Origin: an uncultured virus (IMG/VR IMGVR_UViG_3300025121_000021)
Taxonomy: Duplodnaviria; Heunggongvirae; Uroviricota; Caudoviricetes
Direction: 5' to 3' (one strand)
Length of the DNA: 64,000 nucleotides
IMG/VR virus record: IMGVR_UViG_3300025121_000021
Under the pieces are notes generated by a model that was given only the letters and a program-made list of their open reading frames with translations, did not search any database and was not told the origin of the DNA. Each line of letters opens with the position of its first letter. Positions within the stretch are counted from its first letter, which is position 1. The position numbers and the translations under genes were made by a program. Shown here one piece after another: positions 1,885 through 51,020 of this stretch.

Positions 1885-4854
1885 TTAAGCCTCCTGGTTA
1901 ATAATATCCATTTCATCTTTAATATAAGAAAGCATTTGATTTTGGAAAAACAAATGAACATCCTGATGTTGTAACGCTTCAAGATTGAATTTGTATCCGT
2001 TGGTCATTCCAACAATATTGCTTACTAACTCTCCAATTTCGGTTTCATGGAGTTTTGTGATCTTTAAAAATGTTTTTATTTTTTCTTCTGATAAATTAAA
2101 CTTTTGTAATGTATTAATGACGTACTCAATATTTTCTTTTTTAAGAATATTTTTCAGTATGAAAGGCGTAAAGAATTTACTCCCGCCCTCAACATGTTTG
2201 ATACCTCGGACTAAACAATCTTGAACTAATCTTGCATATATGAAAATTAATTCATGCATTAATTCTTTATCGATGTAATTTTTGCCATAGGTCCATTCGC
2301 ATAAGCCATACCATTCCCATAATTGTAATGTTCCAAATCCCATAAGGGTTTTAGCAATGGCGCTGTCTGCAAATATTTGTTTATACTTATCATAATCAAT
2401 ATAGTACCATCTAAAAGGTTGGAAATCAAGAGCTGAATTACTTAGTTCTTTTTTTGTATATTGTTTAATCCAGTCTATCTCATATGGTCTTAGGTTTTTA
2501 TCGGGATCTGTAACGTATATCTTTTCTAATAAATTTTGTCCCTCAATACTACTAGGAGCTAATATTGGGAATATATCTCCGTCGCAATCGCTTTGGTCAT
2601 TAAGACAATCCAATGGATTACGTAATATAATAGATGCGCAAGCTTGTTTGTCAATAACATCGTTTATATTCCAGCCTATTTCATTTAAGTAATACTCAAA
2701 ATCATCGGCTGTCATAATCTTTTGAATAAATATTTGTCCAGGCCATATAACTGGATTTCTTGTTCCACAATGATAGGTTAGCCCATTTTCTATTACAAGT
2801 TTATTAAAAGTAGGATGAAAAATAACAACATGTGTGCGAGGAACTCTCCAATCGTAAAGTTGTTTTGCTGATAGTCCGAATATTCTAGTTGTACAGTTAG
2901 CACTTATAAGTTTATTCTTCCCTATCAATTCGGATTTGATAGCATCTAAATATGCTTCATGAGCATTTTCTATTTGTTTTTTATTGGTTATAAATTGATT
3001 GTTAGTCTTTTTCCCTCTTAGGGATAAGAGTAATCTATTTGCTCTACTAAAAATAGTTGTGTAGCGAACTTCTCCGCTATAAATTTCATCAGATAATAGC
3101 CTGAGCATATATGCGCTGGGAAATCTGATTGTCAATCCATTGTGTTTATAAATAAAACCGTTGTTATCAAAATTTAAAAGTCCTTCATTCGGAACTTTAT
3201 CTCCAAAAGTAATAATCGGGAATTTAATTCCTTCCATCCATTGGAGTAAATCTTCATGATTGAAAACAGGAATGTCTTTATTATATTGTTGAAGAATTTT
3301 AATAGATTCAACAACGCAATCTTTCTTAATTTTATTATCTTCTTTCTCCATGAGATGAAGAGCTAATTCATCGTATCCATAATGATGTAAATATTTAATA
3401 ACTTCTGGTAGAACCTTATGATCATCTTTTACACGACAATATTCCGAAGCTAATTCTGTAATTTGGATGGGTAATACTCCAGCCCATACTGTTTTAGTTA
3501 CCCATTTATTATTAATTTTTCTAACCCAAGTAACTTTTTCAATCTTAGATTGAATATCGTTAATTTGTTCTTCGGACATATTGTTAATGTTATACGAACT
3601 GCCTTTAACCATTGCGTCTAGCCCTAATTTTGCCAAGGCAATGGTATTATATTTGGCTTTGATACTATTATGTCCCATTCTTAGATCAATAGGATATGTT
3701 TTGTTTTGATAAATGATATAACCTAAATCTATAACAGGTTTAGTCATGCCCTTGATACCTGTATCTGAAACTATGCGCGTAGAATTTAAACGGGCACGAC
3801 TTTCCCATATAACATGGTAACTATTACGATAGGTTAAATTAGGATGTACCTCTAATACTGTTGCAGATAACAATCCTTGAGGGATATGAATATCTTTACC
3901 ATCTTTATCTTGAGCGATAACAGTAGAGCTATGTACTTTTTGACCTACAATTAATGGTAATTCTATCCCATCGGATAATTCTAAGTCTTGAGAACGAATT
4001 GGTTTGACTATGTTTTGAGTAAATGAACGAGCAGCTTCAATTTCTCCGCCTAATAAATCGTAAGTAGTAGTATTGATTTCGTCAAATACTATTAAACAAT
4101 TTTTAGTGTGTGTAGTTTCATCAGGATTATCTTCCCATGATAAAACCGGTTTTGACTGTTTGATGAACTCTATGTGGTCATTAGCTACACACGATTTATG
4201 CCTTGACAGGAGTTGAGAAGCGTTTTTATCAGTATTAAAAATAGTCTTTACTTGACTTCCCTCAAAGTCATAACCAATAGCTTTATAATTTTTCTTATTT
4301 AAATAAAGAGTAAAAAGACCACGAGTGGGTCCACTTTCACTACCACATAGTACTGGTAGTTCAGTTAGGATTTGTTTCATGAGGACAACATTAAGTGATT
4401 GCCATTCTGTGCGAAAGGCATCACCTAAACATTGCCATTTTTCACCTGTCGTAGGATTGCTAGGGTGAATGAACTTAACTCTGTTCTCAAATTTTAATTT
4501 ACTGTTGTCAGAAATAGGGATACTCGAAGCGCCTATTTCAACAAAACGTTGAATATCGTCTTTTAATAAATTAATAAAAGGTACTTTTTGTTGTAAAATT
4601 TGTTCGAGTCTTTGATCTAAGATTTGACAGAATATATCCTGGGCACTATACCAGGCTTTAGTATTGTCTGTAAACATAATCATAGGCATGACTCGATTAC
4701 AGACAAATTGTCCGTCAATATTCATGGGGAGAGTAAGAGAATAAACTCCGTTCGGGGAAGTGAATAATAATTCTACTTTTTTATCATTAATGAGATATCG
4801 AAATATATGGGGATAAATTTGAGCATAGTAATCCAGAAGTTTTACAAGATTCAT
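1885..4854 (-). CDS. Divergent two-barrel (double-psi beta-barrel) RNA polymerase with beta- and beta'-like motifs in one chain
   Basis: DxDGD catalytic motif (QSDCDGDIFP, ~2575-2589), upstream GTRNPV (RxP-like) and RIVSDTGIKG (beta-type GxKG). Start placed at ATG 4854 behind a GGAGG SD. Confidence 0.6.
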   Translation of the reverse strand: MNLVKLLDYYAQIYPHIFRYLINDKKVELLFTSPNGVYSLTLPMNIDGQFVCNRVMPMIMFTDNTKAWYSAQDIFCQILDQRLEQILQQKVPFINLLKDDIQRFVEIGASSIPISDNSKLKFENRVKFIHPSNPTTGEKWQCLGDAFRTEWQSLNVVLMKQILTELPVLCGSESGPTRGLFTLYLNKKNYKAIGYDFEGSQVKTIFNTDKNASQLLSRHKSCVANDHIEFIKQSKPVLSWEDNPDETTHTKNCLIVFDEINTTTYDLLGGEIEAARSFTQNIVKPIRSQDLELSDGIELPLIVGQKVHSSTVIAQDKDGKDIHIPQGLLSATVLEVHPNLTYRNSYHVIWESRARLNSTRIVSDTGIKGMTKPVIDLGYIIYQNKTYPIDLRMGHNSIKAKYNTIALAKLGLDAMVKGSSYNINNMSEEQINDIQSKIEKVTWVRKINNKWVTKTVWAGVLPIQITELASEYCRVKDDHKVLPEVIKYLHHYGYDELALHLMEKEDNKIKKDCVVESIKILQQYNKDIPVFNHEDLLQWMEGIKFPIITFGDKVPNEGLLNFDNNGFIYKHNGLTIRFPSAYMLRLLSDEIYSGEVRYTTIFSRANRLLLSLRGKKTNNQFITNKKQIENAHEAYLDAIKSELIGKNKLISANCTTRIFGLSAKQLYDWRVPRTHVVIFHPTFNKLVIENGLTYHCGTRNPVIWPGQIFIQKIMTADDFEYYLNEIGWNINDVIDKQACASIILRNPLDCLNDQSDCDGDIFPILAPSSIEGQNLLEKIYVTDPDKNLRPYEIDWIKQYTKKELSNSALDFQPFRWYYIDYDKYKQIFADSAIAKTLMGFGTLQLWEWYGLCEWTYGKNYIDKELMHELIFIYARLVQDCLVRGIKHVEGGSKFFTPFILKNILKKENIEYVINTLQKFNLSEEKIKTFLKITKLHETEIGELVSNIVGMTNGYKFNLEALQHQDVHLFFQNQMLSYIKDEMDIINQEA

Positions 4855-5557
4855 GTGAGCCTCCTTTGTCGCACTCGCAATTATCTTCTTCGTAGCTTTC
4901 TTCTGCATAAAGATTGATCTGACGTTTTTTTACCTTAGGCTTATTAGTATATGTTACTTCTTCTACTATAGCTTCAGCTAAGCCTTGGCTTAATGCATCT
5001 TCTGCCGTGAACCATTGATCTGTTCTTAACCATTCTTCAACATCAAAAACAGGATGGTTTACTCTTTCGGAAATAAGTGTAAGAAATTTTTGACGCTGAT
5101 AATTTACTAAATGTAAATGATTTTGTAAATTTGAATATGTTTCTGCGGCATATAAGAAGATATCATGTAACATGATATGAGCTGAAGGGTAAATTAGTCG
5201 ATGGGGCATTGATAGAGCAATAATACCTGCTGCACTAGCGGCTTCTCCCTGTATTACTGCTGTTGCATTTTGAGAGGAAAGAAGGATGGAATCTATTATT
5301 CGATACATAGCATCTACATCTCCTCCTGGACTATCTATTAATAATAATGGAGGTTCCTGAGGAGTTAACATAGATAAATCTTCTTCAATTTGTTCCGCTA
5401 ATTCTTGGCAAATTTCACCATAGACTTTAATGGTTTTGTCATTGATAGTAATATGGACACGTATGTCATCAGGTACAATACCTTTTTCTCCGGTTTTTTT
5501 TAGTTCTTTAATTATGCTCTTTTTATAATTAACTTGTTTAGCATGTGTGTTAATCAT
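4787..5557 (-). CDS. clpP: ClpP-like serine protease
   Basis: IDSPGGDV, GEAASAA (catalytic Ser), IMLHD (His) and DQWFTAEDALSQGL motifs. Confidence 0.85.
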   Translation of the reverse strand: MINTHAKQVNYKKSIIKELKKTGEKGIVPDDIRVHITINDKTIKVYGEICQELAEQIEEDLSMLTPQEPPLLLIDSPGGDVDAMYRIIDSILLSSQNATAVIQGEAASAAGIIALSMPHRLIYPSAHIMLHDIFLYAAETYSNLQNHLHLVNYQRQKFLTLISERVNHPVFDVEEWLRTDQWFTAEDALSQGLAEAIVEEVTYTNKPKVKKRQINLYAEESYEEDNCECDKGGSHESCKTSGLLCSNLSPYISISH

Positions 5558-16453: not shown

Positions 16454-16463
16454 TTTTGAAGAG

Positions 16464-16530: not shown

Positions 16531-16623
16531 ATAAAATTAGTATGTAGCCCCTTCCGCGCTCATACTATATATCCTCTAGCTTTTTGAGTCAAAAGCCAAG
16601 GGTATTTACCTATGTAAGAAAGT

Positions 16624-16752: not shown

Positions 16753-16766
16753 ATGTACTCCTTGAT

Positions 16767-17363: not shown

Positions 17364-17440
17364 GGCTTACCTCCTCAGGTAGCTTTTTAAACAACACAAA
17401 GCATTAAATCTTTGTGTCAATACTTGAATTTTCAAAAAGA

Positions 17441-24943: not shown

Positions 24944-25014
24944 CGGCATCACTAAGATTCATACTTAGATCTTCTGGTAGACACCAGAGGCTCTCTCCTT
25001 TGAGCTATGATGCC
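24944..25014 (-). tRNA. Degenerate tRNA-like element (anticodon undetermined)
   Basis: GGCATCA/TGATGCC acceptor, D arm, 6-nt anticodon loop, aberrant T loop; copy of 25125..25199. Confidence 0.4.
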
Positions 25015-25022
25015 ATTTTTTA

Positions 25023-25102
25023 TGCCCGAAGTCGGGTTTGAACCGATAGGCTCATTAGCCAGGATATTTTAACCCTGGAGATACCATTCCTCCCATTCGG
25101 GC
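25023..25102 (-). tRNA. Degenerate tRNA-Leu(UAA)-like copy
   Basis: Same acceptor and similar T arm to 25215..25297; anticodon loop expanded. Confidence 0.5.
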
Positions 25103-33977: not shown

Positions 33978-34125
33978 CTGCAAAAGTGCTTGTTTGACTA
34001 CAAAACAGCCGTCTTACCTTGGCAAACAGCCGTCTTACTATAAAACTGCCAGTCTTATCTAGTTTTGGTCGGTTGTCTTCTGCAAAAGTGCCTATCTGAC
34101 TACCTTCTCTACCCCAAGTCTTATC
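33978..34125. repeat. Cluster of short direct repeats in an intergenic region
   Basis: AAACAGCCGTCTTAC twice plus a variant AAACTGCCAGTCTTATC; CTGCAAAAGTGC-N5-TGACTAC twice. Confidence 0.7.
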
Positions 34126-34775
34126 ACTTTCTATGTGATTTTCTCAGGGAATCTGCTACTTTTCTTGTTTATGTTGCACTGCGTTAGGGAATCTTCCTGA
34201 TCCCTACGGAGCCACACTCTTTTTCCCTCTCAATGATTTCTGACCCTTACGAAACCAAGGTATCAAAAATCCCTAAGGGGGAATAAAAATGTGAAAATGC
34301 AGTGCGTCAAGGAAATCACTCGATCAGAGCGAGGAGGGCTTGGAGGTCGGGAGTGGCGAAAATTGCCCGGCCTAACACACGAGAGATGTGTTGCCGGTTT
34401 TGATCTGTTACGAGTTTGTTGTAAGCAGCGGATTGCGCTGCCCTAAACTCGTCACCTCCGAATTTATGAGCTTCGTCCATCGCTCGAGAAATATATTGTG
34501 GTTCGTAGCGCATATGTACCTCTCTATTTTAATTTTCGAAATAAGATTTATGTCACAGACCATACCCTGTGTAGTAACAGGGATGATCTCCTGGATCTAC
34601 GTCTTCGTCGATTTCTCGACAAAATACGAAGAGCCTATATAAATCGAAATATTTCTTTCTGCTCGCGTCGTCTATCAATGCGAGGAGCTTATGAGATTTT
34701 GCGCACGTATCTTCGTAAATCGCATTGTAAAGTCTCATGCGCGCCTCTTTTTCTTTTTTTATTTCACGGATATTT

Positions 34776-37700
34776 TTATGTCAAAGACGAATAACCGAGG
34801 AGAGCTTTTACTTTTTCAGCGAGCGAGCGCCAGCGAGCGAGCGCTGGTTTCTCTTTTTGAGTTTTGCTACTTTTCTTTTTTGTAGGGTTGGATACGGAGC
34901 GAATAGGTAGAGTCTCAGCCCTATAGGTGTAGGATAGCGACGAGCGAGCGCCAGCGAGTGAGGAGCGGTTGAACGAGAACCGAGGAGAGGTTACGGAGCG
35001 GGAGGAAGGGTGCGGTGACGGAGCGGCATTATATTCTGTATCGGTACTGGTACTTGTTTGCTTTAGAATATTGTTATAATCCATTTCATTAAGAATCTTG
35101 GCGGCCATAAATACTGTTATGTGCTGCTTCTTTGCACTTACCAATAAATCTTTTACTCTATCCCATTGGGGTTTAACATTTACAAAAGGAGGTAAAACCA
35201 TTAACTTTCCTCTAACTTTATAGTGTCGGATTACGTTGTAGTTTCTCCATAAAGCTGTTTGATATATTTTACTTTCATCTGTATATCGTTGACACATAGC
35301 TACTGCCCACATTTCTGCTATTAGTTCCAGTATGCCTACAGATTCTGGCGTTTCTGAATCTGTTGTAAAGTCTTGCCTCCAATAATGGTTGGCCAATCTA
35401 TCTAAATGATGTCCAACCTCATGGAAGAGAATTCTCTTGGTTGGGTCAGTTGCCAAGTCAATTGTTCTCATGGCAGGGTTATAAGCTCCATCGCAAAGGG
35501 TTAGGTATGAATTGATCCTCACCCTAAAGCCATAGTCATCAGCAAGAGATCTTGCCATATCTATAGTTATGGGGTCGTTTTCCCCTAACTTGTTAAGTTC
35601 TTGCTTGAGTGCAAGAATTTCTTCGGGACTCAATCCTTCTGAGCCATGGTAATTACGAGAGCGGCTCCACTCTGTCCAAGCTTCAAAAATCTCTTGATCT
35701 AAAGTAGAATCCATATGTCCCTCCGAGTAAAAGTCTTCGTCCAAAAAATCTTCATCTTCGTCGATCTTATCTTTTATTTGAGGAGTGTTAGGGTCTACTA
35801 TATATTTCTTGACCTTCTTCAGTTGTTGAGCAAAGTCTTTAGAAGCAGAAGTGATCCGATTGCTCATGTCAAAACACTGAACTACCTTGCCTGTCTGGAC
35901 ACTCACTTGCGCGCAGACAGTTCCTTTGCGGAAAAATAAGTCGCGCGAGTCTTTGTAACTTCCTAAACAATGACGCATCTCGGATCCTATCTTTACCATG
36001 TCTAATTTTGTCTTGATCCTAAGATCTTCCCAACTTGGAGGCAGGGTCTTATTACATGGCATAACTTCATTGGGCATTGGAATATTTGTAGAGAGATCGT
36101 TCTCTATTGCACGCTGATGATTCCAGATTGCCGTTTCTAATATTCTGACGGGAGATCCATTGTATCTGCGAGTACCAGGAATATCGTCATTTAAGAGTTG
36201 AGCACCATCTTTAATAAACCTTATTAGCATATCCATCTTTTTCATAGATGGGATTGCTTTAACATGCAAGACTTCATTGCAGAATTGTTTGTATGCAGTC
36301 TTGCTAGAAATAACCTTTAGCCCTATAACAGTAGCTCTTATCTCACGGGGAGTAAGCAAAGAGTAATCTGATGAAAGGTCGTAGTATCTAGTAGAATTAG
36401 TTAGAAGCCATACATAGTAATCATGTCTACTATTAAGAGCTTCAGACGGGATATCTATGCTAGGAATGGGTAAAAACCGCAACTTCTCTATGTTCTTAGG
36501 AGCGTGTTTTCCAAAAGGCATCTTGTTGCTTGCATAAAGAGAATCCCTTAGAGCTACTGTATCTATTAACCACCGAGCATAACCCGCTGGGACTTTCAAT
36601 AAGTCCGTAGGATAGTCGAGGTCCCACATTGCTACATAGCAATCCTTAAACGGCTTCTGTGTCCGACAGGAAACTTGCAGTAGTTCTTTAAAACTAAGAG
36701 GAGAGAAACTATTCAATATAGAGGCCGCCCATTTAATATGGAAGGTCCTTATGAGAGGGAAGTCTTTTGGGAGTCGGCCTTTTTCCTTATCCTTTTTCAT
36801 TCCTATATAGTATGAATTCTTATTTCTTACCATTGGATTATGTCCTAGATCTTTGTGCCTCCAGTGTCCAAAGAAGTCCTTTTGTTCGAGGTTGCTGGTG
36901 GTTAAGTCAACGTAAATGTCCTTTTCTAAAAGCACTAGAATTTTGTAGAGTGGTATATCTTTATCTGTAAGGGCTTTTACCTGATCTTCTAGGCAAGATT
37001 CTTTTTGGCCCTCACAAATAGGGAACCAATAATATCTAGTATTTCGTAGGTGAGTATACATACACAAAGCCCAATACTTAACATTGGCCTGTTCGGGAGG
37101 AGTTGGAGTATTAGGATGTTCATCTCCAATAAACAATCCATGTTTATTGAGTTGTTCAATTATCTTACTAATCTGATGTCCCTCCGAATTGAGTGAGATG
37201 CCAGCATTAAATAACTTATTTACATCAGTTTCGCCGGTTTCAATCTGATGCTCATAAGCCCTCTTGAGGATTAAGCCCATTTCTTTTCCTTGCTTATATC
37301 CCCTAGAGACTAAGTGTCTACCCATTAAGATAGGCTCGATTTTCCCTTCTCCGAACGATTCGAAATAGCCAAATGCCATTTGAGAAGGAATATGTGGATC
37401 GTTTAAGGAATAACCTTTCCGGCCGCAAGAATCTGCCTTAGACATTAATCCAATAACATCCAAGCGGATTCTATTGTGGAGACGACGCCAAGCTGCAACT
37501 CCTGCCCCTGATTGGTGGAATTGACCGGGCATCATATGATTTCCAACAATGAGTTCAACCTTATTAATAAGATCGACTTCATTGGTCATAGATTCCATGA
37601 ATTGACGAGCAATAGGTATACCTACTTGGTCATGCCCGTATGCCGTCAAAGTTTCGCGATCAGTGGTCTGTGGTTTACCTACGTCATGAAGCATAGCTCC

Positions 37701-40700
37701 AAACATGTAAGCAAGCTTCCAGGGCTCTGGTACTTGATCCTTGAGAATTGCCGCATTATCCAATACCATCAAGGTATGGACCCAAGCATCACCCTCAGGA
37801 TGGTGCTCAGGATTTTGCTGGCAACCGATCAAGGCTTCCAGAGCCAAGAACCACTTAATCCAACCACAATCCTTGAGGAATTCTAATCCCATAGAAGGCT
37901 TATTAGCTTTCAGTAGGAGTTTCTTGAACTCTTCAAAGATCCTCTCCTTAGGCAGGGTAGGATATTCTGATTGCATCGAGCGACATAACTCGATGGTCTC
38001 AGAGGCTACCTTCTTACCTTTACGAGGCAGAAGTTGCATGATGCGCAAAACGCGCAATGGATCTTCAATGAAAGTTTCTGCGCAAGTGGCGCGCAAAATC
38101 CCTTCATTCAAATCCTTCATTCCACCGAAGTGATCTACAACTTCTCCGGTATGCAAATTTACATACATAGAGTTAATTGTAAGATCCCTTCTCTTCCCCG
38201 CTTCTTCAGGAGTAAGATTGGGGAGTAACTCAACTTGGAAACCTTTGTGGCCTACACCACAACGATTCTCCAGTCGAGGAACATTAAGATCTATGTCAGT
38301 AGTCCCGACTTTGACCTTAATAATTCCAAAGGCAGCACCAACCATATCTGCCTTATATCCCCATTCTTCCAGGTAATCTTGGAGTTGTTTCATTGAAAGT
38401 CCATAGACCTCAATGTCCCAATCCTTGATCTGTCGACCTTGGATGCGGTCAATGACTGCTCCTCCGATGAGGAGAGTCTTTGCTTTGACAGACCAAAGGT
38501 CTTGAAGCAAAACTTCCACATCACCAAGGTCAACCCCAAAGTCTTCGTCATGACCTTCACTGGCCATTGAGACGGTGATTTCAGTCATTTCTTCACCCTC
38601 CCAATCCCAAGTCTCTTCAGTCATGGTCAACCCCATACGATTAACTAATGACTTCACGATTGGGGAGGAAGTGCTCCTACAGTCCATTGTGACAGTCTTC
38701 ACATTATTCTGCTTGAGTACCCGCATACAGCGAGTGATCAAGCGAGCAACGCAAGAGGAAGGAGATCCTGGAATTTTTGCCAGGTCAGCAATCTCTGCCT
38801 CATCTCCTTGGATGCTTCCAAGCAGATAAGCAGAATCGCCCTCTGTCATAGCCAAGATCTCACTGGGTTCACACTCCAGATATTCACAGATGCCTTCAAG
38901 GCTGAACTCTTCTGCCTTGTAGGATCGCATGAATTCTGGATATGCCAATTCCTCGATCCGAACGATCAGATCGAAGTTGATATCTTGGTGTCCCTCCGAC
39001 GCCAGTTTCACGACACCCTCAGCGGTGTCGGTATAGTTAACTGGGGCCGATACCGGGAGACGAGTGACCTGGTACTCCTCTTGCAGCTTCTCGGAATACT
39101 TATTGTATCCGAGTCCGCAATAGACGGCGCCGATGCCGTCGGCCCTCACGGATTTTACTGCCCTCTTGAAGAGGTCATAAACCGTGGGGTCGCCACTTGC
39201 TCCTTCGATGTTATCAATAACAAGGATGCGGTTAGATACCCACACCCACGCCTGAGCAACAAGGCGTTTGCTATTGAATACCACCCAGAAACAGCCATCT
39301 TTGCTGGCCATTCCATGGATAGCACACTCCGAGGCAAATCCTTCGTAGCTCTGACAACAGCCAGTATACCTACCAAGGAATGGTCCCCGGGGATCATTAA
39401 CATCAAGAGTCTTCAGGGTGTAAGTCCCTTCAGAGACATTAACCCAAGGGATACTCTTGACTGGAGACTTATTGAACCAGTACTGAGTCAGCGTATTGAA
39501 GTCGCTAACTCCAGCCTGATAAGCCTCTGTCGCTAACGGGAGTAGTTCTGGAACTACTTTCCCGTAGGAGTTCTCAACCCCCTTCCTACAGATCTCTGCC
39601 TGTAGATCTTCTTTCTTGAGGAGTAGATACTCCTCAATGGGAATATCCTCAGTCCAAGACCGGAGGGGTTGCAACCAGTCCAGTTTGGAACAGTTGCGGA
39701 ACTTCCAGTATAACTGGAAGATTTCCTTCTTTTCCAAAAGGTACACCTCGGTTTCCATTGTCTGGACTCCGACATCGTGTATTCTGGAGAGAAAGAGATC
39801 CACTCCTTCCTTGCCGTATTTAGCATATTTTGACAACATACGGGCAACGATAGCCGTCTGGTTGTCTTCCAGCAAAGATTTCCAACCAAATTGGAAAAAC
39901 CTCCAGTTCGATTTCAGGGCCACAATCTCCTTCCTGTCGCGAATGCCATCTATGATAGCTTTCGCCTGAGGAACACGCCCGAAGGTATTCATCCAATACG
40001 CTTCGACGTGATGTGGATTGTCTCTCCAGTTAAGCGCTCTCTTATAAGCGAGAACGCTTTGGGGGAGTTGACCATCCGTTCCCCAAGAGATGAGATTCCT
40101 AATGGAGAGAATCTCCACCCTGGAGATGTCTCCCAGAGTTTCAAGAGGAAGACCGGCATGTAACAATGTACCGGCCAAGAAGATCCTCTCAAGCTCCGAG
40201 TACATTTGCATTGCCTGCCAGGCAACCAAATGGTCATCAAGGAATGAAAGAGACATCTCTAGTACTTTTTCTCCTTGCAAGGGCGTTGTTGCCCAATGGA
40301 AGGTTTCTCTCAGCATTTTCGCGATGCCAAGATACTTCCTCCTAGAGATGGGAGAGTCTATTTTGCTGGCTTTTTCTATGTTAAACCAGCAACCTAAATT
40401 ACTCCCATTGTATCCTTCGGCAATAAGCCAGTCAATATATTCCGAGGACAAATTTTGGGTCGTATATATCCCGTTTGTCAACCCTGGAATATAGTAACTG
40501 TAAATTGCCGAGACTACAGTTGCTCTGGTCTCAGAAGGACAGAGATATTCATCTGTCCTCTTTATCTCAGACAGGATATAGTCCCTTAGTTCCAGGGAGG
40601 GGTTGAGGACTATTCCCTTCTGCCAGACCAAGGCAATCTGTTGCCCTGGAGTAACGGTGTCCAAAGGAGAATCGATCTCCTCGATATCCTCCTTGGACAA

Positions 40701-43700
40701 CCCCTTACTCCTTAAGGGACGATTATGGATATGTTCACTCCCGTAAACAATCCAGACATCCCTAAAGACATGGATGTCATTCTCGTGCCCTTCACTGGCC
40801 ATAGATGCCAAGGCGTTGAATTCCTCCTCGGACATCTCGGTCAGCCCACCGTGAGGCGGCTCAGGCGAACGACCTTTCTCGTTCGCGATGAGCACGTTCT
40901 CAGCGATGACGGCGTACTCCCCGCCGAACAGGTGGAACAGGTCACACCTGGTTTGAGGAGCAACTCCGATGTTCCGGAGGTCCTCAATCAGGTCAACCTG
41001 CTTCTCCGTCCGCTTCACAGCGTGGAGGGCCGCCTCATATTTTGCCCAACGCCTATCGTTGAGCAAAGCGAGAGCACCAATGGACCGCAACACCTCGTCA
41101 GTCATGACGAAGGCGTAGAGGCCCATGGTGTCACGAGCCCGGAACCAGCGGAGAAGCTGGCGAGTCGTGAGACTACCGAGCATTTGGTGGTACATATCGT
41201 CCCACAACGCTTTCGCATGGAGACTCGTACCATCCTCAGCTCGGTTGACATATTCCAACCCTCCCTTGTGGAACCGATAACCCTTCATGTGGTTATACAG
41301 TTCGGGGAGGTCGAAGGACTGCACCGCCCGAAGAGTCCGGCGGAAGTACTTCTCGTTGGACTGCACCCCATGCTTGAGGGCAGACACGAGATACCCCGCC
41401 AACTCGTTTCCGAGTGGGGCGTCCTTGTCAGTGGCCAGCGCATCGATGATAGGATCGAGCGCCAACCCTAACTGGCACATGAATTTCGCTGCATCCTCTA
41501 CCTTGACTTTCGCCAAAGTAGGCTCCGCAGTTTCCGCCAATTGGAACGCCTTCGCAACAAAGACACGTTGGAGATACGTGGCCTTGTCATCCTCGACATT
41601 TGTCCAGACTTCGAACTCACGTCCGTAGTCCTCTTGAGTACTCCTACTATAGGAGTTCAGGACTTCCAGACAACGTCCGAACTGGATCTCCGCGTCGATA
41701 GCCTTGAGCATCTGCCAAGGTTCGAGTGGGTTGGAGTTTGTCTCTTCCAGGAAGTTTTGCATCATTTCATTGATGCGCTCCTGGAAGTCGGGATCGTAAC
41801 CATATTTGTTGCCATCAAAAACAACACGGTTACCCTGGTTCTCGATCTCGGTGATCTCCTGATCGGAGAAGATCCTATGCAACCATGCCCGTTTGATTTG
41901 GACATGGTAGATCGAGAGGATGTCCACGACCTCACGGACCAGAGAGACGTTACTCTCTTTGATTATCTTCATCATTGCGATGAAGACTGGCCCGGTGAGT
42001 TTCTCGTTCCAGAGGACACCGAGAGGTGAGTCTCCCAGTTTGGTCTGAATGACCTTGCTGGTTGCCCAAGGCAGCACCTTAAGCAACTCGGAAGCGGTGT
42101 GTTTCTTGAAGCCGAGTACGGCATCATAGAAACGGCGACCGTCATTGGTCTTCGCTCCCAAGATTGCTTCCCTGTGCTGCCAGGGATTCAGCCTCTTGAC
42201 TTGGACGGACTCATCTCCGCCCTCGAAGGAATTCAGGTCCGACAACCAGAACTCCTTCTCGTATTCGACGACAACAAGACGTCCCTTATCATCGTCGATG
42301 TACTTCTTGAACCCACGGACGGTACCAATGATGGCACCAAGTTCGCGGGTCTTCGGATAACACCGAGGAATGTCCCGACAGACACCGTACTCATCGAAGA
42401 GAACTTCGTTGAGCCGGGTGAGATTCCCACGGTGTTCGCGGACGGCAGCGTCGAAGATCGCCTGTTCGTTGGCGTCTTCACTACCTTCCTCAACCTCGTG
42501 AAGGATCTCACTGTTGTCGGGATCTTCCTCGTCGGGAACTTCCGACTTAATGGCGTTAACAACCCGATTCCACGGATTGTTGATGCCTGCCAAGTCACGG
42601 AAGCTCTCATCCCACAGAATGTCAAAGTTGCTCATGGTAATTCTCCTATGAGCGTTAACCCGGTTACCCACCGGGATTGGGTCCTCTTTATGCCCCTCGG
42701 ATTTGAAGGACGGCTTCGTCAATGGCTGCAAACGAGGCGCAACCAATAACTTACCATTCCCCTCGAACACCGTAATCGAGCCTTCCGACTCGCTATGGTG
42801 TCCGATTCCAATCGCCGACATGTTGAGTTCCTCTTTGTAGAGATACTCAAACCTCCGGCTACCGTTCGCTGCCTCGGGACGGTCCGACCACATGTCAATG
42901 GGCCGGATCCAACGTCCATAGTCGCCATACATCTTCATGTAGACGACATACGATTCGCCGAACATCCCCTCGGCAAACCCGAGGACCTGGTATTCGTTAC
43001 CCTTGAAGTGGCGATAGATGCCACCACGGATAACGTCATGCCCTTCCGAGCACAGGTCTAATTCCTCCATATCTAACTCAGCATCGATCATGTTGATCTC
43101 CGACTGAGCGGCTTTGAGGACAACTGGATCTTCAGAGAAGTCCAACTCCCTCTGGAGGAACGTCAACCGCTTTTGAACCTGCTCTTGGCGACTGTCGGTC
43201 GTCACCAAGTACAGGGAGCGGTGTCCCTCGGAGGCCAGGACTGCGTCCTGATACTTACCATTCCTACGATGGGCTTCGTACCAGGCTTCAGCCTTCTTCC
43301 AGGAGAGGTCACGGACGACCAGACCTTGCCTGGTCCATCCGGACACACCTGCCCGGAAGTTCATCCAAGCGTCCGCAGCCACTTCGCTGCTGCCACGCAG
43401 GATGTGGCCAATCTCGTGGAGGAGGTCAGCCACGTTGGCGTCGGCGCGGTAGTAAGCAATGCCACCGGTCAGCCTGGCGGGAGCGTCAATGCTCTCGCTG
43501 TGCTTGAAGGTGACGTTGTACTTCCTGCCCAGGCGGTTGGCATTGGCCTGAAGTTTGGCCACGGCCTTGGCCTCAACCTTCTTGGCGAAGGTGAGGTTGG
43601 CGACGGCCTTCTCCCAAGACTGACGAGCCTTGGTGAAAGCCAGGGCCAAACCCTTGACTTCCGTCTTCCTTTGACGGAGGCAGATCAAGAGCTTCCTGGT

Positions 43701-44558
43701 CTTTGTCAAGGCCAGGGTATTGACCCTGATCTCCCTGCGGAGATTGACCACCTTCTTCTCGGCTTTGATCATGCCGAGGTCGTCGTACCAGGCGTTGGCG
43801 AACTCCTGGACAGCGATTTCCTTGGCATTGACCAGAGCACTCTTGCTCTCCTCAACGCCAATGGTCAGGGACTTGACCATGGCCATGGTCTCCCTGATTT
43901 TGGAAGAGATCTTGGGCAAGGTAGTGCCGGAGACCTCCAGGTTGATGGAAGTCATATCCATGACTTCTTTGATCTTGACGGTGTCGCCGGTTTGCGGATT
44001 GCGAACGGTTCGGGCGGCCCTCTTCTTCACCGTCCAGGTACCGAAGCCGGGATTGGTGAACCGCTTTGTCACCTTGGCGAGGTTAACCTCGCCCCCCCAG
44101 GTGAGGGTGGGGAGGGCGGCGACCATCTTCATCACCTTGGTGATCTTCTGGGTGCTCTTGACGCTGCTGATGCGTCGTTGACGCCTCACCCAGCGGCTCT
44201 CTTTCGTGATCTTGGAGGCCGGGATGACCTCCTTGATCACGGTCTTGGAGGCCGGGATGTCGATAACCGCGCCGGTCTGGGGATTCCTGCTGCGCCGTCG
44301 CATGATCTGGTCTTGGGCCTTAGCCCTCAACCAGATTTCGTTCTCGATATCCTTCCAGGTGTGGCACGCCTTGGTCAACGTTATCATGTGGCCACGGCTG
44401 ACACTTAACCCGTTGAGAGCCGCAATGGCTCTCTTCACCTTGACCCAACTCCGGACCGAGGCCCGGGTGTCGAACAGGACGTCGCACACTTCGTTGATCA
44501 CGGTCTTGGTCAGACCGTGATGTTTAAGGGTGTTACTTAAGACTAATTGCTGGTTCAT
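34776..44558 (-). CDS. ~3260-aa polyvalent protein/polyprotein: HU-like arms, HExxH peptidase, DUF1653, two large unknown domains, GNAT-like, CCA-adding+HD, PcfJ-like, second HExxH peptidase; punctuated by SEGH
   Basis: GGAGG SD before ATG 44558; RNPQTG twice and PGFGTW; LHEIGH; YRHFKGNEYQV; GGAVID..KDWDIE, RRDLTIN, EDPLRVLR, HPEGD, LHDVGKP; GSEMRHCLGSY; FHEVGH; 8 x SEGH. Confidence 0.85.
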   Translation of the reverse strand: MNQQLVLSNTLKHHGLTKTVINEVCDVLFDTRASVRSWVKVKRAIAALNGLSVSRGHMITLTKACHTWKDIENEIWLRAKAQDQIMRRRSRNPQTGAVIDIPASKTVIKEVIPASKITKESRWVRRQRRISSVKSTQKITKVMKMVAALPTLTWGGEVNLAKVTKRFTNPGFGTWTVKKRAARTVRNPQTGDTVKIKEVMDMTSINLEVSGTTLPKISSKIRETMAMVKSLTIGVEESKSALVNAKEIAVQEFANAWYDDLGMIKAEKKVVNLRREIRVNTLALTKTRKLLICLRQRKTEVKGLALAFTKARQSWEKAVANLTFAKKVEAKAVAKLQANANRLGRKYNVTFKHSESIDAPARLTGGIAYYRADANVADLLHEIGHILRGSSEVAADAWMNFRAGVSGWTRQGLVVRDLSWKKAEAWYEAHRRNGKYQDAVLASEGHRSLYLVTTDSRQEQVQKRLTFLQRELDFSEDPVVLKAAQSEINMIDAELDMEELDLCSEGHDVIRGGIYRHFKGNEYQVLGFAEGMFGESYVVYMKMYGDYGRWIRPIDMWSDRPEAANGSRRFEYLYKEELNMSAIGIGHHSESEGSITVFEGNGKLLVAPRLQPLTKPSFKSEGHKEDPIPVGNRVNAHRRITMSNFDILWDESFRDLAGINNPWNRVVNAIKSEVPDEEDPDNSEILHEVEEGSEDANEQAIFDAAVREHRGNLTRLNEVLFDEYGVCRDIPRCYPKTRELGAIIGTVRGFKKYIDDDKGRLVVVEYEKEFWLSDLNSFEGGDESVQVKRLNPWQHREAILGAKTNDGRRFYDAVLGFKKHTASELLKVLPWATSKVIQTKLGDSPLGVLWNEKLTGPVFIAMMKIIKESNVSLVREVVDILSIYHVQIKRAWLHRIFSDQEITEIENQGNRVVFDGNKYGYDPDFQERINEMMQNFLEETNSNPLEPWQMLKAIDAEIQFGRCLEVLNSYSRSTQEDYGREFEVWTNVEDDKATYLQRVFVAKAFQLAETAEPTLAKVKVEDAAKFMCQLGLALDPIIDALATDKDAPLGNELAGYLVSALKHGVQSNEKYFRRTLRAVQSFDLPELYNHMKGYRFHKGGLEYVNRAEDGTSLHAKALWDDMYHQMLGSLTTRQLLRWFRARDTMGLYAFVMTDEVLRSIGALALLNDRRWAKYEAALHAVKRTEKQVDLIEDLRNIGVAPQTRCDLFHLFGGEYAVIAENVLIANEKGRSPEPPHGGLTEMSEEEFNALASMASEGHENDIHVFRDVWIVYGSEHIHNRPLRSKGLSKEDIEEIDSPLDTVTPGQQIALVWQKGIVLNPSLELRDYILSEIKRTDEYLCPSETRATVVSAIYSYYIPGLTNGIYTTQNLSSEYIDWLIAEGYNGSNLGCWFNIEKASKIDSPISRRKYLGIAKMLRETFHWATTPLQGEKVLEMSLSFLDDHLVAWQAMQMYSELERIFLAGTLLHAGLPLETLGDISRVEILSIRNLISWGTDGQLPQSVLAYKRALNWRDNPHHVEAYWMNTFGRVPQAKAIIDGIRDRKEIVALKSNWRFFQFGWKSLLEDNQTAIVARMLSKYAKYGKEGVDLFLSRIHDVGVQTMETEVYLLEKKEIFQLYWKFRNCSKLDWLQPLRSWTEDIPIEEYLLLKKEDLQAEICRKGVENSYGKVVPELLPLATEAYQAGVSDFNTLTQYWFNKSPVKSIPWVNVSEGTYTLKTLDVNDPRGPFLGRYTGCCQSYEGFASECAIHGMASKDGCFWVVFNSKRLVAQAWVWVSNRILVIDNIEGASGDPTVYDLFKRAVKSVRADGIGAVYCGLGYNKYSEKLQEEYQVTRLPVSAPVNYTDTAEGVVKLASEGHQDINFDLIVRIEELAYPEFMRSYKAEEFSLEGICEYLECEPSEILAMTEGDSAYLLGSIQGDEAEIADLAKIPGSPSSCVARLITRCMRVLKQNNVKTVTMDCRSTSSPIVKSLVNRMGLTMTEETWDWEGEEMTEITVSMASEGHDEDFGVDLGDVEVLLQDLWSVKAKTLLIGGAVIDRIQGRQIKDWDIEVYGLSMKQLQDYLEEWGYKADMVGAAFGIIKVKVGTTDIDLNVPRLENRCGVGHKGFQVELLPNLTPEEAGKRRDLTINSMYVNLHTGEVVDHFGGMKDLNEGILRATCAETFIEDPLRVLRIMQLLPRKGKKVASETIELCRSMQSEYPTLPKERIFEEFKKLLLKANKPSMGLEFLKDCGWIKWFLALEALIGCQQNPEHHPEGDAWVHTLMVLDNAAILKDQVPEPWKLAYMFGAMLHDVGKPQTTDRETLTAYGHDQVGIPIARQFMESMTNEVDLINKVELIVGNHMMPGQFHQSGAGVAAWRRLHNRIRLDVIGLMSKADSCGRKGYSLNDPHIPSQMAFGYFESFGEGKIEPILMGRHLVSRGYKQGKEMGLILKRAYEHQIETGETDVNKLFNAGISLNSEGHQISKIIEQLNKHGLFIGDEHPNTPTPPEQANVKYWALCMYTHLRNTRYYWFPICEGQKESCLEDQVKALTDKDIPLYKILVLLEKDIYVDLTTSNLEQKDFFGHWRHKDLGHNPMVRNKNSYYIGMKKDKEKGRLPKDFPLIRTFHIKWAASILNSFSPLSFKELLQVSCRTQKPFKDCYVAMWDLDYPTDLLKVPAGYARWLIDTVALRDSLYASNKMPFGKHAPKNIEKLRFLPIPSIDIPSEALNSRHDYYVWLLTNSTRYYDLSSDYSLLTPREIRATVIGLKVISSKTAYKQFCNEVLHVKAIPSMKKMDMLIRFIKDGAQLLNDDIPGTRRYNGSPVRILETAIWNHQRAIENDLSTNIPMPNEVMPCNKTLPPSWEDLRIKTKLDMVKIGSEMRHCLGSYKDSRDLFFRKGTVCAQVSVQTGKVVQCFDMSNRITSASKDFAQQLKKVKKYIVDPNTPQIKDKIDEDEDFLDEDFYSEGHMDSTLDQEIFEAWTEWSRSRNYHGSEGLSPEEILALKQELNKLGENDPITIDMARSLADDYGFRVRINSYLTLCDGAYNPAMRTIDLATDPTKRILFHEVGHHLDRLANHYWRQDFTTDSETPESVGILELIAEMWAVAMCQRYTDESKIYQTALWRNYNVIRHYKVRGKLMVLPPFVNVKPQWDRVKDLLVSAKKQHITVFMAAKILNEMDYNNILKQTSTSTDTEYNAAPSPHPSSRSVTSPRFSFNRSSLAGARSSLSYTYRAETLPIRSVSNPTKKKSSKTQKEKPALARWRSLAEKVKALLGYSSLT

Positions 44559-44580
44559 ATTTCCTCCATAAAGAGGGTTG

Positions 44581-44955
44581 ACTTCTGGCCCCGAACCATT
44601 AGGTACCCAGAAGTTTGGGCATCTTGTGCCCGCCGGGGTTATGGACTCCCGGCAGCCTCGTGATTCTGGCTCACGTCGCCCTGTTTCGGATTCTCCACCG
44701 CTCATCATGAGGGAGAAATCCGCAACCACTCCTCCTTGAGTGGAGATATATGAGACGATTTTTTCTTCGGGGTTCGTCTCAAGCCCCTATTTTTCACCAG
44801 GAAGAGGGGGTAAGACCTAAGATGAGTGACTAGACGGTCTCACTCACCCTCCCTTCCCGGTGAAAACGTGGGGTTACTCTCATGCCTCTCCGGTAGCGCC
44901 CCAAAACTTCCGGAGAGAGGGGGGTGGGCATCGAACGCCGATGTTTCTCACCCTC
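44581..44955. other. GC-rich array of about ten hairpins upstream of the polyprotein gene
   Basis: Examples: ACTTCTGG/CCAGAAGT, GGGCA/TGCCC, GCCGGG/CCCGGC, CCACTC/GAGTGG, TGAGACGA/TCGTCTCA, TTTTCACC/GGTGAAAA, TGAGTGA/TCACTCA, CTCTCCGG/CCGGAGAG, CATCG/CGATG. Confidence 0.7.
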
Positions 44956-45183
44956 ATACTTCACTGGGTACTCCTTCTAAATTATTTCCAGATTTATTTT
45001 CATATAGGAAAATTACAGATTCTTCCCCTTCTAAATTTATTTCAAACTTTATTTTCCGTAGGAATTTTTCACTCATGGGATCCTTCTCTAAAAGCATTCC
45101 ATCCATGTAATTTGAATCTTGCCTCTCTCTATTTTCATTCATTCCCTACACTTGGGAATATCAAAAAATATTTTTCCTGGGTA

Positions 45184-45212
45184 TTTACTTTATAAGGGCG
45201 ATTTAGTATAAT
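45184..45212 (+). promoter_or_regulatory. Sigma70-type promoter at the start of the plus-strand gene run
   Basis: TTTACT-N17-TATAAT about 30 nt upstream of ORF 45244. Confidence 0.55.
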
Positions 45213-45243
45213 ATTTACAATTGAACAACACTTAAGTAAACAT

Positions 45244-45885
45244 ATGACAACAGAACTTGCGAATTCTACAAATCTTGAAGGGACAATAACTGCTTCAACT
45301 TTTACCAATAGTCCCCTCTGGACAGTATATGAGCATCCTCAGACAACAGCAGCAGAAGGTTATACAATAACTGGAACAACAGAGGACTATTCCCAAACTT
45401 ATATAACAGGAGATCTCGTAATAGCTGCAGGCGACACTAACGCGATGAGCGCAGCAAGAATGCAATATATTTATATTGATGGTACTAATAGTGGAATCGG
45501 TGCAGAAAGATATCCTTTTATTTATCAAGATGTGAATGGCGTCGAAACAGTTAACCTTAGAAGTTTCAATGCTACAAATTACTTAGCGAGGATGACAGAA
45601 AAAGAAACTGAAGTATTACTTGCCACTATGCCTGCAAAAATGCGTATTGCCTATTTTGAGATTAAGAAACATTTAATCGCTGGAGTATTAGTAGTAGAAC
45701 GAAAATATACAGATCTTCTCTTTGCTTTACTAGGTTTGATTGGGTTTGTTCAAAACTTCAATAATATTGGTTACGAGAAGCAGCACTTGTTTTCTATTGT
45801 TACGGGGCTAGTTACTACCGACGAAACATTTGTGAAAACCTTATATAAAATTGCTTTCAATGAAATAGAAGAGGAAATATTATGA
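45244..45885 (+). CDS. Hypothetical protein
   Basis: 213-aa ORF, first of the plus-strand run; stop overlaps the next start (ATGA). Confidence 0.6.
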   Translation: MTTELANSTNLEGTITASTFTNSPLWTVYEHPQTTAAEGYTITGTTEDYSQTYITGDLVIAAGDTNAMSAARMQYIYIDGTNSGIGAERYPFIYQDVNGVETVNLRSFNATNYLARMTEKETEVLLATMPAKMRIAYFEIKKHLIAGVLVVERKYTDLLFALLGLIGFVQNFNNIGYEKQHLFSIVTGLVTTDETFVKTLYKIAFNEIEEEIL

Positions 45886-46334
45886 TGTTATATTTATCCA
45901 TGTCGATGGGAGGTTTTGCTGAACCTCATCCTTTTGTTGAGTTTATTGAATCTGCTTTTCAGAGAGATTGTGCGATTTATAATCCTCGTTTAACATTAAA
46001 AGAAAATTGCACTCGATCTGTGTTGTTTGCTAATGTCATGAAAGATTCTCCTTTTATTGAACAAGAAACTCTCTATCCTAAAGATACTAGTCTGATCCAG
46101 GAATATCAACAGCATCTTATAGATCTATCAAATGTCTTTATTGTCGAACTAGATAGGATGTCTCAAGGATCTAAATACCTAGAAATCGCATATGCTAGGT
46201 CTAAAGATATTCCTATCGTTGGGATACTAGATACCATGACTATTACACCTTGGGTTTGGAATTCAGTCGGTTATGTATGTAAATTACAAAACGCACCGAA
46301 GCTCATTCAACTAATTCTTAATGACATGTTATAA
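45882..46334 (+). CDS. Nucleoside 2-deoxyribosyltransferase-like protein
   Basis: YLSMSMGG, IYNP, SQGSKYLEIAYARSKDIPIV. Confidence 0.55.
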   Translation: MMLYLSMSMGGFAEPHPFVEFIESAFQRDCAIYNPRLTLKENCTRSVLFANVMKDSPFIEQETLYPKDTSLIQEYQQHLIDLSNVFIVELDRMSQGSKYLEIAYARSKDIPIVGILDTMTITPWVWNSVGYVCKLQNAPKLIQLILNDML

Positions 46335-50022: not shown

Positions 50023-51020
50023 TGGCTTGGTATAATACAGCTTGGAATGCTGCTCAAGAGATCGCAGTAGGTCCAATAGGCAAAGGTATGGCTATTGGAG
50101 CAGGCGTAGGAGCCGTTGGTGGTGCTACCTACTCCTTAGGTAGCGATAGGACATCATTCCTTGGAGGAGCCTTTAAAGGTGCTTTACTTGGCGCTGGACT
50201 AGGGTCTGGTCAAGCTACTAAAGGTATCATGGGTGGCGCTATTGCTGGTGGTATTTATGGTGGTATCAAAGACAACCAAACTATCCTAGGTGGGGCTGTC
50301 ATGGGTGGTGCGATTGGTGGAGGTATCCATGCTGGAGGCACACACTTAGGTTGGTGGAAAAAAAAGGCCGCTGCTGCTGGTACTCCTGCTGCTGAGTCCT
50401 TAGCAAGTAAGAACCAACGAGACATTAATCGGGAAATGGGTTCTGAGGTAATGACATCTACACCAGGAGATGTCGACTATAGAGGTTTATTTGATGAAGG
50501 CCTGCATGGTTTTCTTGCTGACAAAAAGCGTCTTGCTGCCGAGCGTGCTGCTGCGGCTGCCGCTCCCGCTCCTTCTGCAGTCGCTTCTCCTGCTCCTGTT
50601 ATTCCAACTGCTTCTAGTGTAGCAAATACAATTCAGGCAATTAAAGAAACTTCTACGGGAGTTTGGGGAGTTGCAGAGAGTCAAGAACTTATAGATTCGT
50701 CAACAAAGAGACTTAAAGATAAATATAGTAGTATGCTCAATAAAACATTACCTCCTGAGTTTGAAACAAGAAAGAATACTATTTTATCTCATATGCAACA
50801 GTCATTTTTGCCGACATATACAGAAGATCAAATAAACAAAGGCGTTGGAGATCTTGAGAGAGATTTATTTGATCTCTTTAAAGATGTAAGTGGGTTGAAA
50901 GCTGCCAAAGAAGCAACTAAAGTGGCTACAAAGTCATTAAAGGAGGGAAATTTAACAAATAGTCCATCTCTTAAAAAACAGCGTAAGAATAAACAACCAA
51001 AAAAGAATCAACGTAGATGA
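50022..51020 (+). CDS. Glycine-zipper protein, possibly virion/ejection
   Basis: Repeated GxxxGxxxG units at the N-terminus, Ala/Pro linker, basic tail. Confidence 0.4.
   Translation: MAWYNTAWNAAQEIAVGPIGKGMAIGAGVGAVGGATYSLGSDRTSFLGGAFKGALLGAGLGSGQATKGIMGGAIAGGIYGGIKDNQTILGGAVMGGAIGGGIHAGGTHLGWWKKKAAAAGTPAAESLASKNQRDINREMGSEVMTSTPGDVDYRGLFDEGLHGFLADKKRLAAERAAAAAAPAPSAVASPAPVIPTASSVANTIQAIKETSTGVWGVAESQELIDSSTKRLKDKYSSMLNKTLPPEFETRKNTILSHMQQSFLPTYTEDQINKGVGDLERDLFDLFKDVSGLKAAKEATKVATKSLKEGNLTNSPSLKKQRKNKQPKKNQRR

Follow-up and report, generated by a model that had tools for sequence, protein, structure and literature searches.

The stretch of DNA analysed here (the window), 64,000 nucleotides of the uncultured Caudoviricetes virus IMGVR_UViG_3300025121_000021 of IMG/VR, carries on its minus strand one giant open reading frame (ORF) that is punctuated by a recurring short peptide, Ser-Glu-Gly-His (SEGH). 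Positions 34776-44729 of this strand form a single open frame, and the ATG at 44558, with a GGAGG 4 nt upstream, is its start; a database cluster representative (P0002) begins at the identical Met. Residue numbers are counted throughout from an upstream GTG at 44729, Met58 being the actual start. Domains recognised by Pfam and PHROG span the whole length of the frame 34776..44558 and bring several unrelated functions (HU-like, DUF1653, PolyA_pol+HD and PcfJ-like domains) together in it. Read from its sequence, the giant ORF is a string of nine modules with the motif at each joint (Table 1).

Table 1 Coordinates of the giant ORF, of its modules and junctions in N- to C-terminal order, and of other genes referred to in the text.
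Feature	Coordinates	Strand	Remarks
Giant ORF, nine-module polyvalent polyprotein (predicted)	34776..44558	-	3260 aa, start ATG 44558; coordinates include the stop codon
Tandem HU/IHF-like DNA-binding region, residues 58 to ~260	43950..44558	-	Pfam Bac_DNA_binding, 2 stretches, E 1.5e-12
First HExxH module, ~residues 400-499	43233..43532	-	HEIGH 438-442 = 43404-43418; ends at site 1
Junction 1, VLA-SEGH-R, residue 500	43221..43232	-	
Junction 2, DLC-SEGH-D, residue 561	43038..43049	-	4 residues ahead of DUF1653 start GGIYRHFKG
DUF1653, residues 570-628	42846..43022	-	Pfam PF07866, E 1.4e-16, profile 1-61 of 62
Junction 3, SFK-SEGH-K, residue 677	42690..42701	-	
Orphan module, 631 aa	40797..42689	-	No family or homologue in searches made
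Junction 4, SMA-SEGH-E, residue 1312	40785..40796	-	AGT Ser; GC3 breakpoint 0.72 to 0.54
Orphan module, 595 aa	39000..40784	-	No family or homologue in searches made
Junction 5, KLA-SEGH-Q, residue 1911	38988..38999	-	
142-aa module	38562..38987	-	Between junctions 5 and 6
Junction 6, SMA-SEGH-D, residue 2057	38550..38561	-	AGT Ser; GC3 breakpoint 0.54 to 0.39
CCA-adding tRNA nucleotidyltransferase + HD, residues 2084-2495	37245..38480	-	phrog_2244, E 1.6e-60, profile 4-383 of 392
Junction 7, SLN-SEGH-Q, residue 2515	37176..37187	-	
PcfJ-like module, residues 2519-3001	35727..37175	-	116 non-self matches; AlphaFold2 core pLDDT 60-96
Junction 8, DFY-SEGH-M, residue 3002	35715..35726	-	DNA GGAGGGACATATG: Shine-Dalgarno-like, then in-frame ATG
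Second HExxH module, residues 3006-3317	34779..35714	-	HEVGH 3103-3107 = 35409-35423
ClpP-family protease gene	4787..5557	-	Pfam CLP_protease E 9.6e-23; PHROG head maturation protease E 3e-24
Terminase	51017-52981		Transcribed away from giant ORF
Portal	56334-58352		Transcribed away from giant ORF
Major head protein	62135-63481		Transcribed away from giant ORF
RNA-repair-like, DprA-like and release-factor-like genes	8291-9610, 14865-15404, 16767-17363, 27452-27955 (-); L013:7377-7727		
Further ORFs bearing [ILF]SK[RC][AL]	L006:2016-2732; L009:4281-5729; L009:5719-6360; L010:4901-10999		

The proposed order of modules runs from a tandem HU-like binder, a coiled coil and the first HExxH module, through a 57-aa piece that would form a module of its own between sites 1 and 2, to DUF1653, two orphans of ~600 aa, the 142-aa module, the CCA-adding+HD enzyme, the PcfJ-like module and the second HExxH module. 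Several of these assignments had been made in a first-pass annotation of the same DNA from its letters alone, and they hold: Pfam places DUF1653 between sites 2 and 3, the enzyme between sites 6 and 7 shows the domain order PolyA_pol head, RNA-binding, HD (Pfam E 5.5e-20, 2.9e-5 and 7.6e-7; residues 2087-2399), HMMER matches bear out a PcfJ-like module in segment 7-8, and one HExxH motif lies before site 1 and another after site 8. On the other hand, the GNAT-like domain said to fill residues 1911-2056 was not recovered, as Pfam finds no GNAT family there even at E<=5. PDB matches of the N-terminal region are HU/IHF chains, including the single-chain IHF 2iie, and the N-terminus resembles two HU/IHF-like halves in one chain. 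The second HExxH module ends in a Ser/Thr/Pro-rich basic tail, within whose code falls a 22-nt direct repeat (34820-34841 and 34941-34962; 95% identity, 121 nt apart).

The motif and its distribution

SEGH occurs eight times in the giant ORF, at residues 500, 561, 677, 1312, 1911, 2057, 2515 and 3002, exactly where the first pass had reported it (43221, 43038, 42690, 40785, 38988, 38550, 37176 and 35715). Chance had been said to give far fewer than one copy, and the composition of the protein indeed predicts 0.023-0.024; across 5000 shuffles at least one copy appears in 99, with a maximum of 2. The runner-up tetrapeptide reaches at most 4 copies and is ASEG, itself part of the motif. The delimited segments have the lengths reported before (61, 116, 635, 599, 146, 458, 487 and 316 aa, the last being the value computed here).

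The full motif is longer than SEGH. Position -2 is L, M or F at all eight sites (chance 3.5e-7), which gives hydrophobic-x-Ser-Glu-Gly-His, and the residue after the His is polar in 7 of the 8. Three near-copies, SEGS (648), SEGT (1766) and the SEGL already listed by the first pass (residue 3030, 35631-35642), are without the hydrophobic residue at -2. Around the sites acidic residues are enriched upstream (0.25 vs 0.13, P 0.002), the sole enrichment found.

The codons vary: Ser is TCC/TCG at six sites and AGT at two, both Glu codons (GAG, GAA) and both His codons (CAC, CAT) are used, and Gly appears as GGA, GGG or GGT. From this the first-pass annotation had argued for conservation at the protein level. 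The synonymous codons and the two Ser codon families are there, but the argument is weaker than it appeared, because at the DNA level the two AGT sites, 4 and 6, resemble each other most (30 nt, 80%), and one switch of Ser codon would be sufficient to explain them.

The motif is also private to this gene. No SEGH is present outside the giant ORF in any frame of at least 60 aa of the 125-kb assembly (G000) in which the window sits. The coding pattern WSNGARGGNCAY has 8 matches in the corresponding 190-kb IMG/VR record, all within the giant ORF, against 2 for the reversed control. Loose forms, [LMFIV]x[ST]EG[HNQ] and [LMFIV]xSE[GAS]H, fall 8/8 in the giant ORF among 185 ORFs (40,817 aa), while plain SEG is found there 11 times and 5 times elsewhere in the same set. 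Neither SEGH nor a loose variant is found in the portal, in the major capsid protein or in the two ORFs that separate their genes.

Module ends, compositional seams and related sequences

We mapped the domain boundaries against the sites, a check that the first pass had proposed. No Pfam domain straddles any SEGH site, and the three modules with detectable relatives (DUF1653, CCA-adding+HD and PcfJ-like) match, in alignment, free-standing proteins from end to end. DUF1653 genes that stand alone, on a phage contig and on a plasmid, begin M-SEEIRPGRYRHFKG / M-DEVMPGRYRHFKG, and the giant ORF reads SEGH-DVIRGGIYRHFKG at the same place. For the CCA module, the phrog_2244 profile projects to residues 2081-2504, the flanking sites being at 2057 and 2515; a stand-alone CCA frame (L001, 37.7% identity) projects to residues 2062-2518; and residue 2056 is the projected position of Met1 of P0003, a protein with an N-terminal CCA domain.

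For the PcfJ-like module, a HMMER search of the whole library with residues 2515-3317 returned 116 non-self matches, all within query positions 188-502. Termini were projected from the best 56 of these 116 matches, 36 of which are 400-520 aa long. The N-termini of these 36 project to -21..+70 from site 7 (median +16.5), and their C-termini to query positions 465-494 (median 474), site 8 being at position 488. The extent of the module is thus that of free-standing proteins of ~430-500 aa. The core of an AlphaFold2 model based on 61 homologues is confident (predicted local distance difference test, pLDDT, 60-96), with a helix at 2961-2977 as its last element, and site 8 lies in a stretch with pLDDT<50 between this helix and the next. 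Foldseek returned no match of the model in the PDB at E<=0.001. A PcfJ-like nature of the module 1316-1910 was considered and rejected (hhalign probability 0.6%). There is no common fold around the motif, because the domains that flank it differ from site to site; for this reason an intein or other self-cleaving fold at the sites was rejected as well.

The base composition of the gene is stepped. Along the giant ORF, GC content at third codon positions (GC3) drops from 0.76 to 0.38-0.39, and the remaining window is mostly 30-43% GC overall. With two change points, the best model has its steps at residues 1308 and 2057; these correspond to sites 4 (1312) and 6 (2057) and divide the gene into blocks I, II and III with mean GC3 of 0.72, 0.54 and 0.39. 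A third significant step lies at residue 449, 51 residues before site 1 (0/300 shuffles reach its gain), and no significant step is found inside blocks II and III.

Sites 4 and 6, the only ones with AGT Ser, have in common a 30-nt direct repeat (repeat family D6, 80% identity), which reads S-M-A-S-E-G-H-D-E-D and S-M-A-S-E-G-H-E-N-D in the coding sense. Within SMASEGH the two copies differ at 3 positions, none of which changes an amino acid, and 2 of the 3 codons that follow encode different residues. Further repeats link sites 1 and 5 (19 nt, 89%) and sites 5, 7 and 8 (14 nt). From these data we infer that blocks of modules from sources differing in base composition were joined at pre-existing SEGH joints; other SEGH-bearing polyproteins should therefore exist. 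The coincidence of junction and breakpoint suggests how such giant proteins are assembled, and the breakpoints at two sites also fit a role of the motif as a recombination joint.

Relatives of the whole protein were sought in several ways. A search of GenBank phages for near-identical DNA gave no match, and whole-protein scans of IMG/VR and metagenomes gave identical copies only. With tblastn, residues 400-3317 hit 452 records, and among the matches listed (40) all are to the CCA part only; residues 58-1311 hit 6 phage and 19 plasmid records, through DUF1653 or HU pieces only. Two apparently longer matches, L018 and L019, were discarded since their extensions run through stop codons. Residues 677-1910 found no match in a word-indexed search against shorter proteins, nor did an alignment of the eight junction peptides among proteins of 71-2000 aa, a range that leaves giant proteins outside. 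The 9 kb upstream of a terminase relative (L017, 37% identity) contain no giant ORF punctuated by a motif.

A length-matched search yielded two other giant proteins with a CCA domain, P0003 and P0004. P0004 (2621 aa, L006:10001-17866) lies directly after terminase and portal genes and contains [ILF]SKRA four times; a relative on L007 (2635 aa, 9854-17758), 56% identical to it, contains [IL]SK[RC][AL] nine times. The pattern [ILF]SK[RC][AL], which was defined after viewing the data, is expected in 0.02-0.03 copies and reaches a maximum of 2 in 2000 shuffles. Homology between the two proteins begins exactly at the motif, residue 961 of the L006 frame being aligned to residue 50 of L007: the L006 protein has 960 residues ahead of this point that are missing from L007, and the L007 protein has extra modules past further motifs. 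Pfam domains straddle the motif in 0/8 cases, and the distance from motif to CCA domain equals that from SEGH site 6 in the giant ORF. The contents of these proteins are topoisomerase IB, a CCA enzyme, a 2H phosphoesterase and a LigD phosphoesterase. The L006/L007 lineage is unrelated to the SEGH phage, and its own junction motif is an independent parallel.

P0003 (2101 aa), without a relative in IMG/VR, has a weaker, putative junction pattern, a recurring K-[TS]-(S)-A, beside CCA, AAA_33 kinase and DUF192 domains, as well as seven DPRG zinc-ribbon-like repeats.

Genomic setting and candidate proteases

CheckV estimates the 190-kb IMG/VR record to be 84% complete. The phage origin of the giant ORF is indicated by terminase, portal and major head genes 6-19 kb off on the same contig. 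The giant ORF lies outside this head module and is the first gene of a leftward operon, which also includes tRNAs, an RNA ligase, a kinase-like ATPase, two genes of DprA type and the ClpP-family protease; the remainder of the 125-kb assembly holds replication and nucleotide-metabolism genes. With its RNA ligase, its polynucleotide-kinase-like ATPase and the CCA enzyme of the polyprotein, the phage has an RNA-repair-like gene set, and besides the DprA-like genes it has a release-factor-like gene with an RF-1 domain. In the tRNA cluster, which includes Ile(tat), Leu(taa) and His, ARAGORN finds two tRNA-like genes with irregular anticodon loops ('tc', 'aaaa') at 24942-25102 (-).

The leader of the giant ORF, some 400 nt at 44559-44960 (-), is GC-rich and strongly structured. 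Its folding energy is -171.8 kcal/mol, compared to -138.0 +/- 6.0 for shuffles (z -5.66; 0/100 shuffles as good), and it holds a long hairpin at 44783-44875. In positions 34000-46000 Rfam recognises no family; the sole match is a sub-threshold hairpin model, on both strands.

In this phage, the candidates for a protease that would act on the junctions are the two HExxH modules and the ClpP-family gene. The first HExxH (HEIGH) lies 58 residues before site 1 and is followed 8 residues later by a Glu in EVAADAW; the second (HEVGH) lies ~100 residues after site 8, with a Glu in ELIAEMWA 31 residues later. Both HExxH + Glu regions are predicted to be helical, in a low-confidence model. Both modules may resemble the ArdC-type signature. 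HExxH with a Glu on the next helix is the motif of the metallopeptidases (MPTases) proposed to process polyvalent proteins (Iyer et al. 2017, PMC5512222). Besides these modules, the ClpP-family gene alone was recognised as a protease in the phage; it would be a candidate enzyme acting in trans. An S78 prohead protease was not found in the 190-kb record, in a search in which control genomes did match the family; for S77 the control genomes were silent and the search is uninformative.

Reading of the junctions and known systems

Taken together, the data suggest that the junction peptide is recognised by a protein, because four residues are invariant and position -2 is constrained, because the codons vary synonymously, because the sites stand at module ends and are confined to one ORF, and because an analogous code exists elsewhere. 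Probably, then, [L/M/F]-x-S-E-G-H is a cutting signal that releases the modules, whether the enzyme is embedded or encoded elsewhere: a sequence-specific endopeptidase would recognise it and free the modules as separate proteins. In the reading that we favour, with a probability of about 0.5, the enzyme is embedded and would be either HExxH(+Glu) module at the chain ends, or both. Each of them abuts a terminal site, which it could cut in cis, and it could act in trans on the remaining sites. A Shine-Dalgarno (SD) sequence and ATG overlapping site 8 may in addition allow the C-terminal module to be made alone, and the same joints are probably where module blocks from other sources recombined in. 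The motif, its restriction to this ORF, its place at module ends and the mosaic breakpoints are observed; that the junctions are cut, by which enzyme and at which bond, we infer from sequence. An embedded HExxH enzyme is favoured because the motif is private, because the two HExxH modules bracket the array, and because of the contrast with L006/L007. The first-pass proposal that SEGH is the recognition site of an internal HExxH peptidase is supported in part, by the module borders, the protein-level conservation and the HExxH motifs beyond the first and last sites, but neither module could be assigned to a peptidase family.

Several observations weigh against an embedded enzyme or against cleavage as such. 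Pfam has no match for the first HExxH module and for the second only E 0.14-0.16 (M64, M91); PHROG adds for the second only phrog_87 metallo-protease at E 0.0042. PDB sequence searches found no match for either module, the N-terminal segment matching in its HU-like part only, and the HMMER library search with residues 2515-3317 found no relative of the C-terminal one. The Atlas gives leads only (Peptidase_M78 0.88 and 0.86, ImmA/IrrE 0.87, LPD23 0.87; those for the first module are Peptidase_M78 0.88 and ImmA/IrrE 0.87), and a single-sequence AlphaFold2 model of residues 2985-3250 has a pLDDT of 37 and is unusable. Mean hydropathy at the sites is -0.42 vs -0.39 in the rest, and 44% of random sets are as low. 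Site 7 lies in the N-terminal part of the PcfJ-like model, which has low confidence throughout and is uninformative on this site. The first pass had advised looking for SEGH in homologous giant ORFs, and no diverged relative with SEGH was found in the searches made. In the L006/L007 giant proteins there is no HExxH, and the SK motif of that lineage also occurs in a 238-aa ORF (twice), in a tape-measure-like protein, in its neighbour and in a giant tail-spike-like ORF. Finally, the N4 virion RNA polymerase, ArdC and TraC1 carry MPTases and travel unprocessed, as described in Iyer et al. 2017 (PMC5512222).

Alternatively, SEGH might be cut by a protease encoded elsewhere, be it the ClpP-family or head-maturation enzyme of this phage, another of its proteases or one of the host, and the HExxH modules would then be effectors. 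The L006/L007 lineage shows how such a code could be served: its motif is spread over other proteins, its giant proteins are without HExxH, the code is evidently read in trans, and the wider spread suggests a trans-acting maturation protease. The present phage has the ClpP-family gene, and A-S-E stands at 4 of its 8 sites, which is reminiscent of the prohead protease gp245 of SPN3US, reported to cut after A-x-E (PMC10052503). A maturation protease would, however, be expected to have substrates in the capsid module, and the other ORFs of this phage, portal and major capsid protein included, have neither SEGH nor a loose variant; moreover, the giant ORF stands outside the head module, as first gene of a leftward operon with tRNA and RNA-repair genes, and the 190-kb record yielded no S78 prohead protease. 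We regard an enzyme encoded elsewhere as unlikely, and the prohead protease or ClpP option of the first pass is weakened.

It is likewise improbable, in our judgement, that SEGH is an uncut joint, either a conserved linker that marks cassette recombination, much like the VENN and DPxGL demarcation motifs of polymorphic toxins, or a sequence with another role in the intact protein. In favour of such a joint are the two strongest GC3 change points, at sites 4 and 6, the repeats of 30 nt (sites 4/6), 19 nt (1/5) and 14 nt (5/7/8), a site hydropathy that is not linker-like and the existence of some MPTase-bearing proteins that stay unprocessed (PMC5512222). Repeats of 12-30 nt with synonymous differences are, on the other hand, short for homologous exchange; sites 2, 3, 5, 7 and 8 lie in compositionally uniform blocks, yet keep the four residues and the hydrophobic -2; the third change point misses site 1 by 51 residues; and the fact that S, E, G and H stay fixed although two Ser codon families are in use argues for peptide, and not DNA, as what is recognised. 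Recombination and cleavage do not exclude each other as roles of the motif, and both can coexist. The motif could also be a translated ribosome-binding site at which GAGG/GGAGG restarts translation of the downstream modules. The gene's own start uses GGAGG, all eight sites contain GAGG, AAGG or GGAGG, and site 8 (GGAGGGACATATG) has an in-frame ATG 5 nt past the SD-like core. Still, an in-frame ATG, GTG or TTG stands at usable distance in only 1 of the 8 sites, and an SD role leaves unexplained why Ser (TCN and AGT) and His are invariant and why position -2 is hydrophobic; we consider restarting at the junctions very improbable as a general explanation. The C-terminal HExxH module could nevertheless also be made on its own, the DNA of site 8 resembling the gene's ribosome-binding site.

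If the embedded-enzyme reading is carried further, the system might be self-contained, with a zincin of specificity like that of the tobacco etch virus (TEV) protease cutting its own nine-module chain, and with SEGH as the splice point of a hidden pool of polyproteins of varied GC from which blocks are imported. We offer this as a tentative and rather doubtful extension. Were it true, a self-contained zincin and a shared splice point would amount to a cassette-exchange system with a built-in release code.

Polyvalent proteins are polypeptides of phages and conjugative elements for which autoproteolytic domain release was proposed (Iyer, Burroughs, Anand, de Souza, Aravind 2017, PMC5512222). 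These proteins and their proposed autoprocessing by MPTases are already known. As in polyvalent proteins, unrelated enzymatic and DNA-binding domains are combined in one phage polypeptide with HExxH zincin-like modules at the ends. In contrast to them, the giant ORF has a strict six-position peptide at every joint, no cleavage sequence being defined in the part of that paper drawn on here (PMC5512222), and its two HExxH modules match no Pfam peptidase model above threshold. A literature survey, judged from titles and abstracts, found no paper describing a junction motif of polyvalent proteins or phage polyproteins. Autoprocessing has been predicted since 2017 without a site to test, and the giant ORF, which can be cloned as a single unit, brings together a candidate site in eight natural copies as substrates and two candidate enzymes.

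Prohead processing in T4-like and giant phages offers a second comparison. In SPN3US, with its protease gp245, a short Glu motif likewise recurs in large proteins (PMC10052503), and A-S-E at 4 of 8 sites resembles it. According to the part of that work drawn on here, however, the motif is common to capsid, portal and many ejection proteins and serves mostly to remove N-terminal propeptides (PMC10052503), whereas SEGH is confined to one ORF outside the head module and separates whole enzymes. The L006/L007 proteins are closer in that a lineage-specific short peptide stands at the module joints and module content differs between relatives; they differ in the peptide itself, and SEGH is private to one ORF with two HExxH modules.

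If the junctions are cut, a new pair of sequence-specific protease and site is possible, as well as a rule by which orphan giant phage proteins could be divided into functional units, which here would apply to the two ~600-aa modules without known relatives. Polyproteins of RNA viruses are cut at sites of the 3C/NIa/Mpro type, and in MARTX toxins a cysteine protease domain cuts between the effector domains. The giant ORF, to which these two are the closest analogies, is like both in having a strict short site at 8/8 joints and its own candidate protease within the translation product. It is unlike both in belonging to a DNA phage, in that its candidate proteases are zincins and not Cys/Ser proteases, in having no sequence relationship to them, and in that its cleavage is putative; if it does occur, the giant ORF would be the DNA-phage counterpart of polyprotein processing in RNA viruses.

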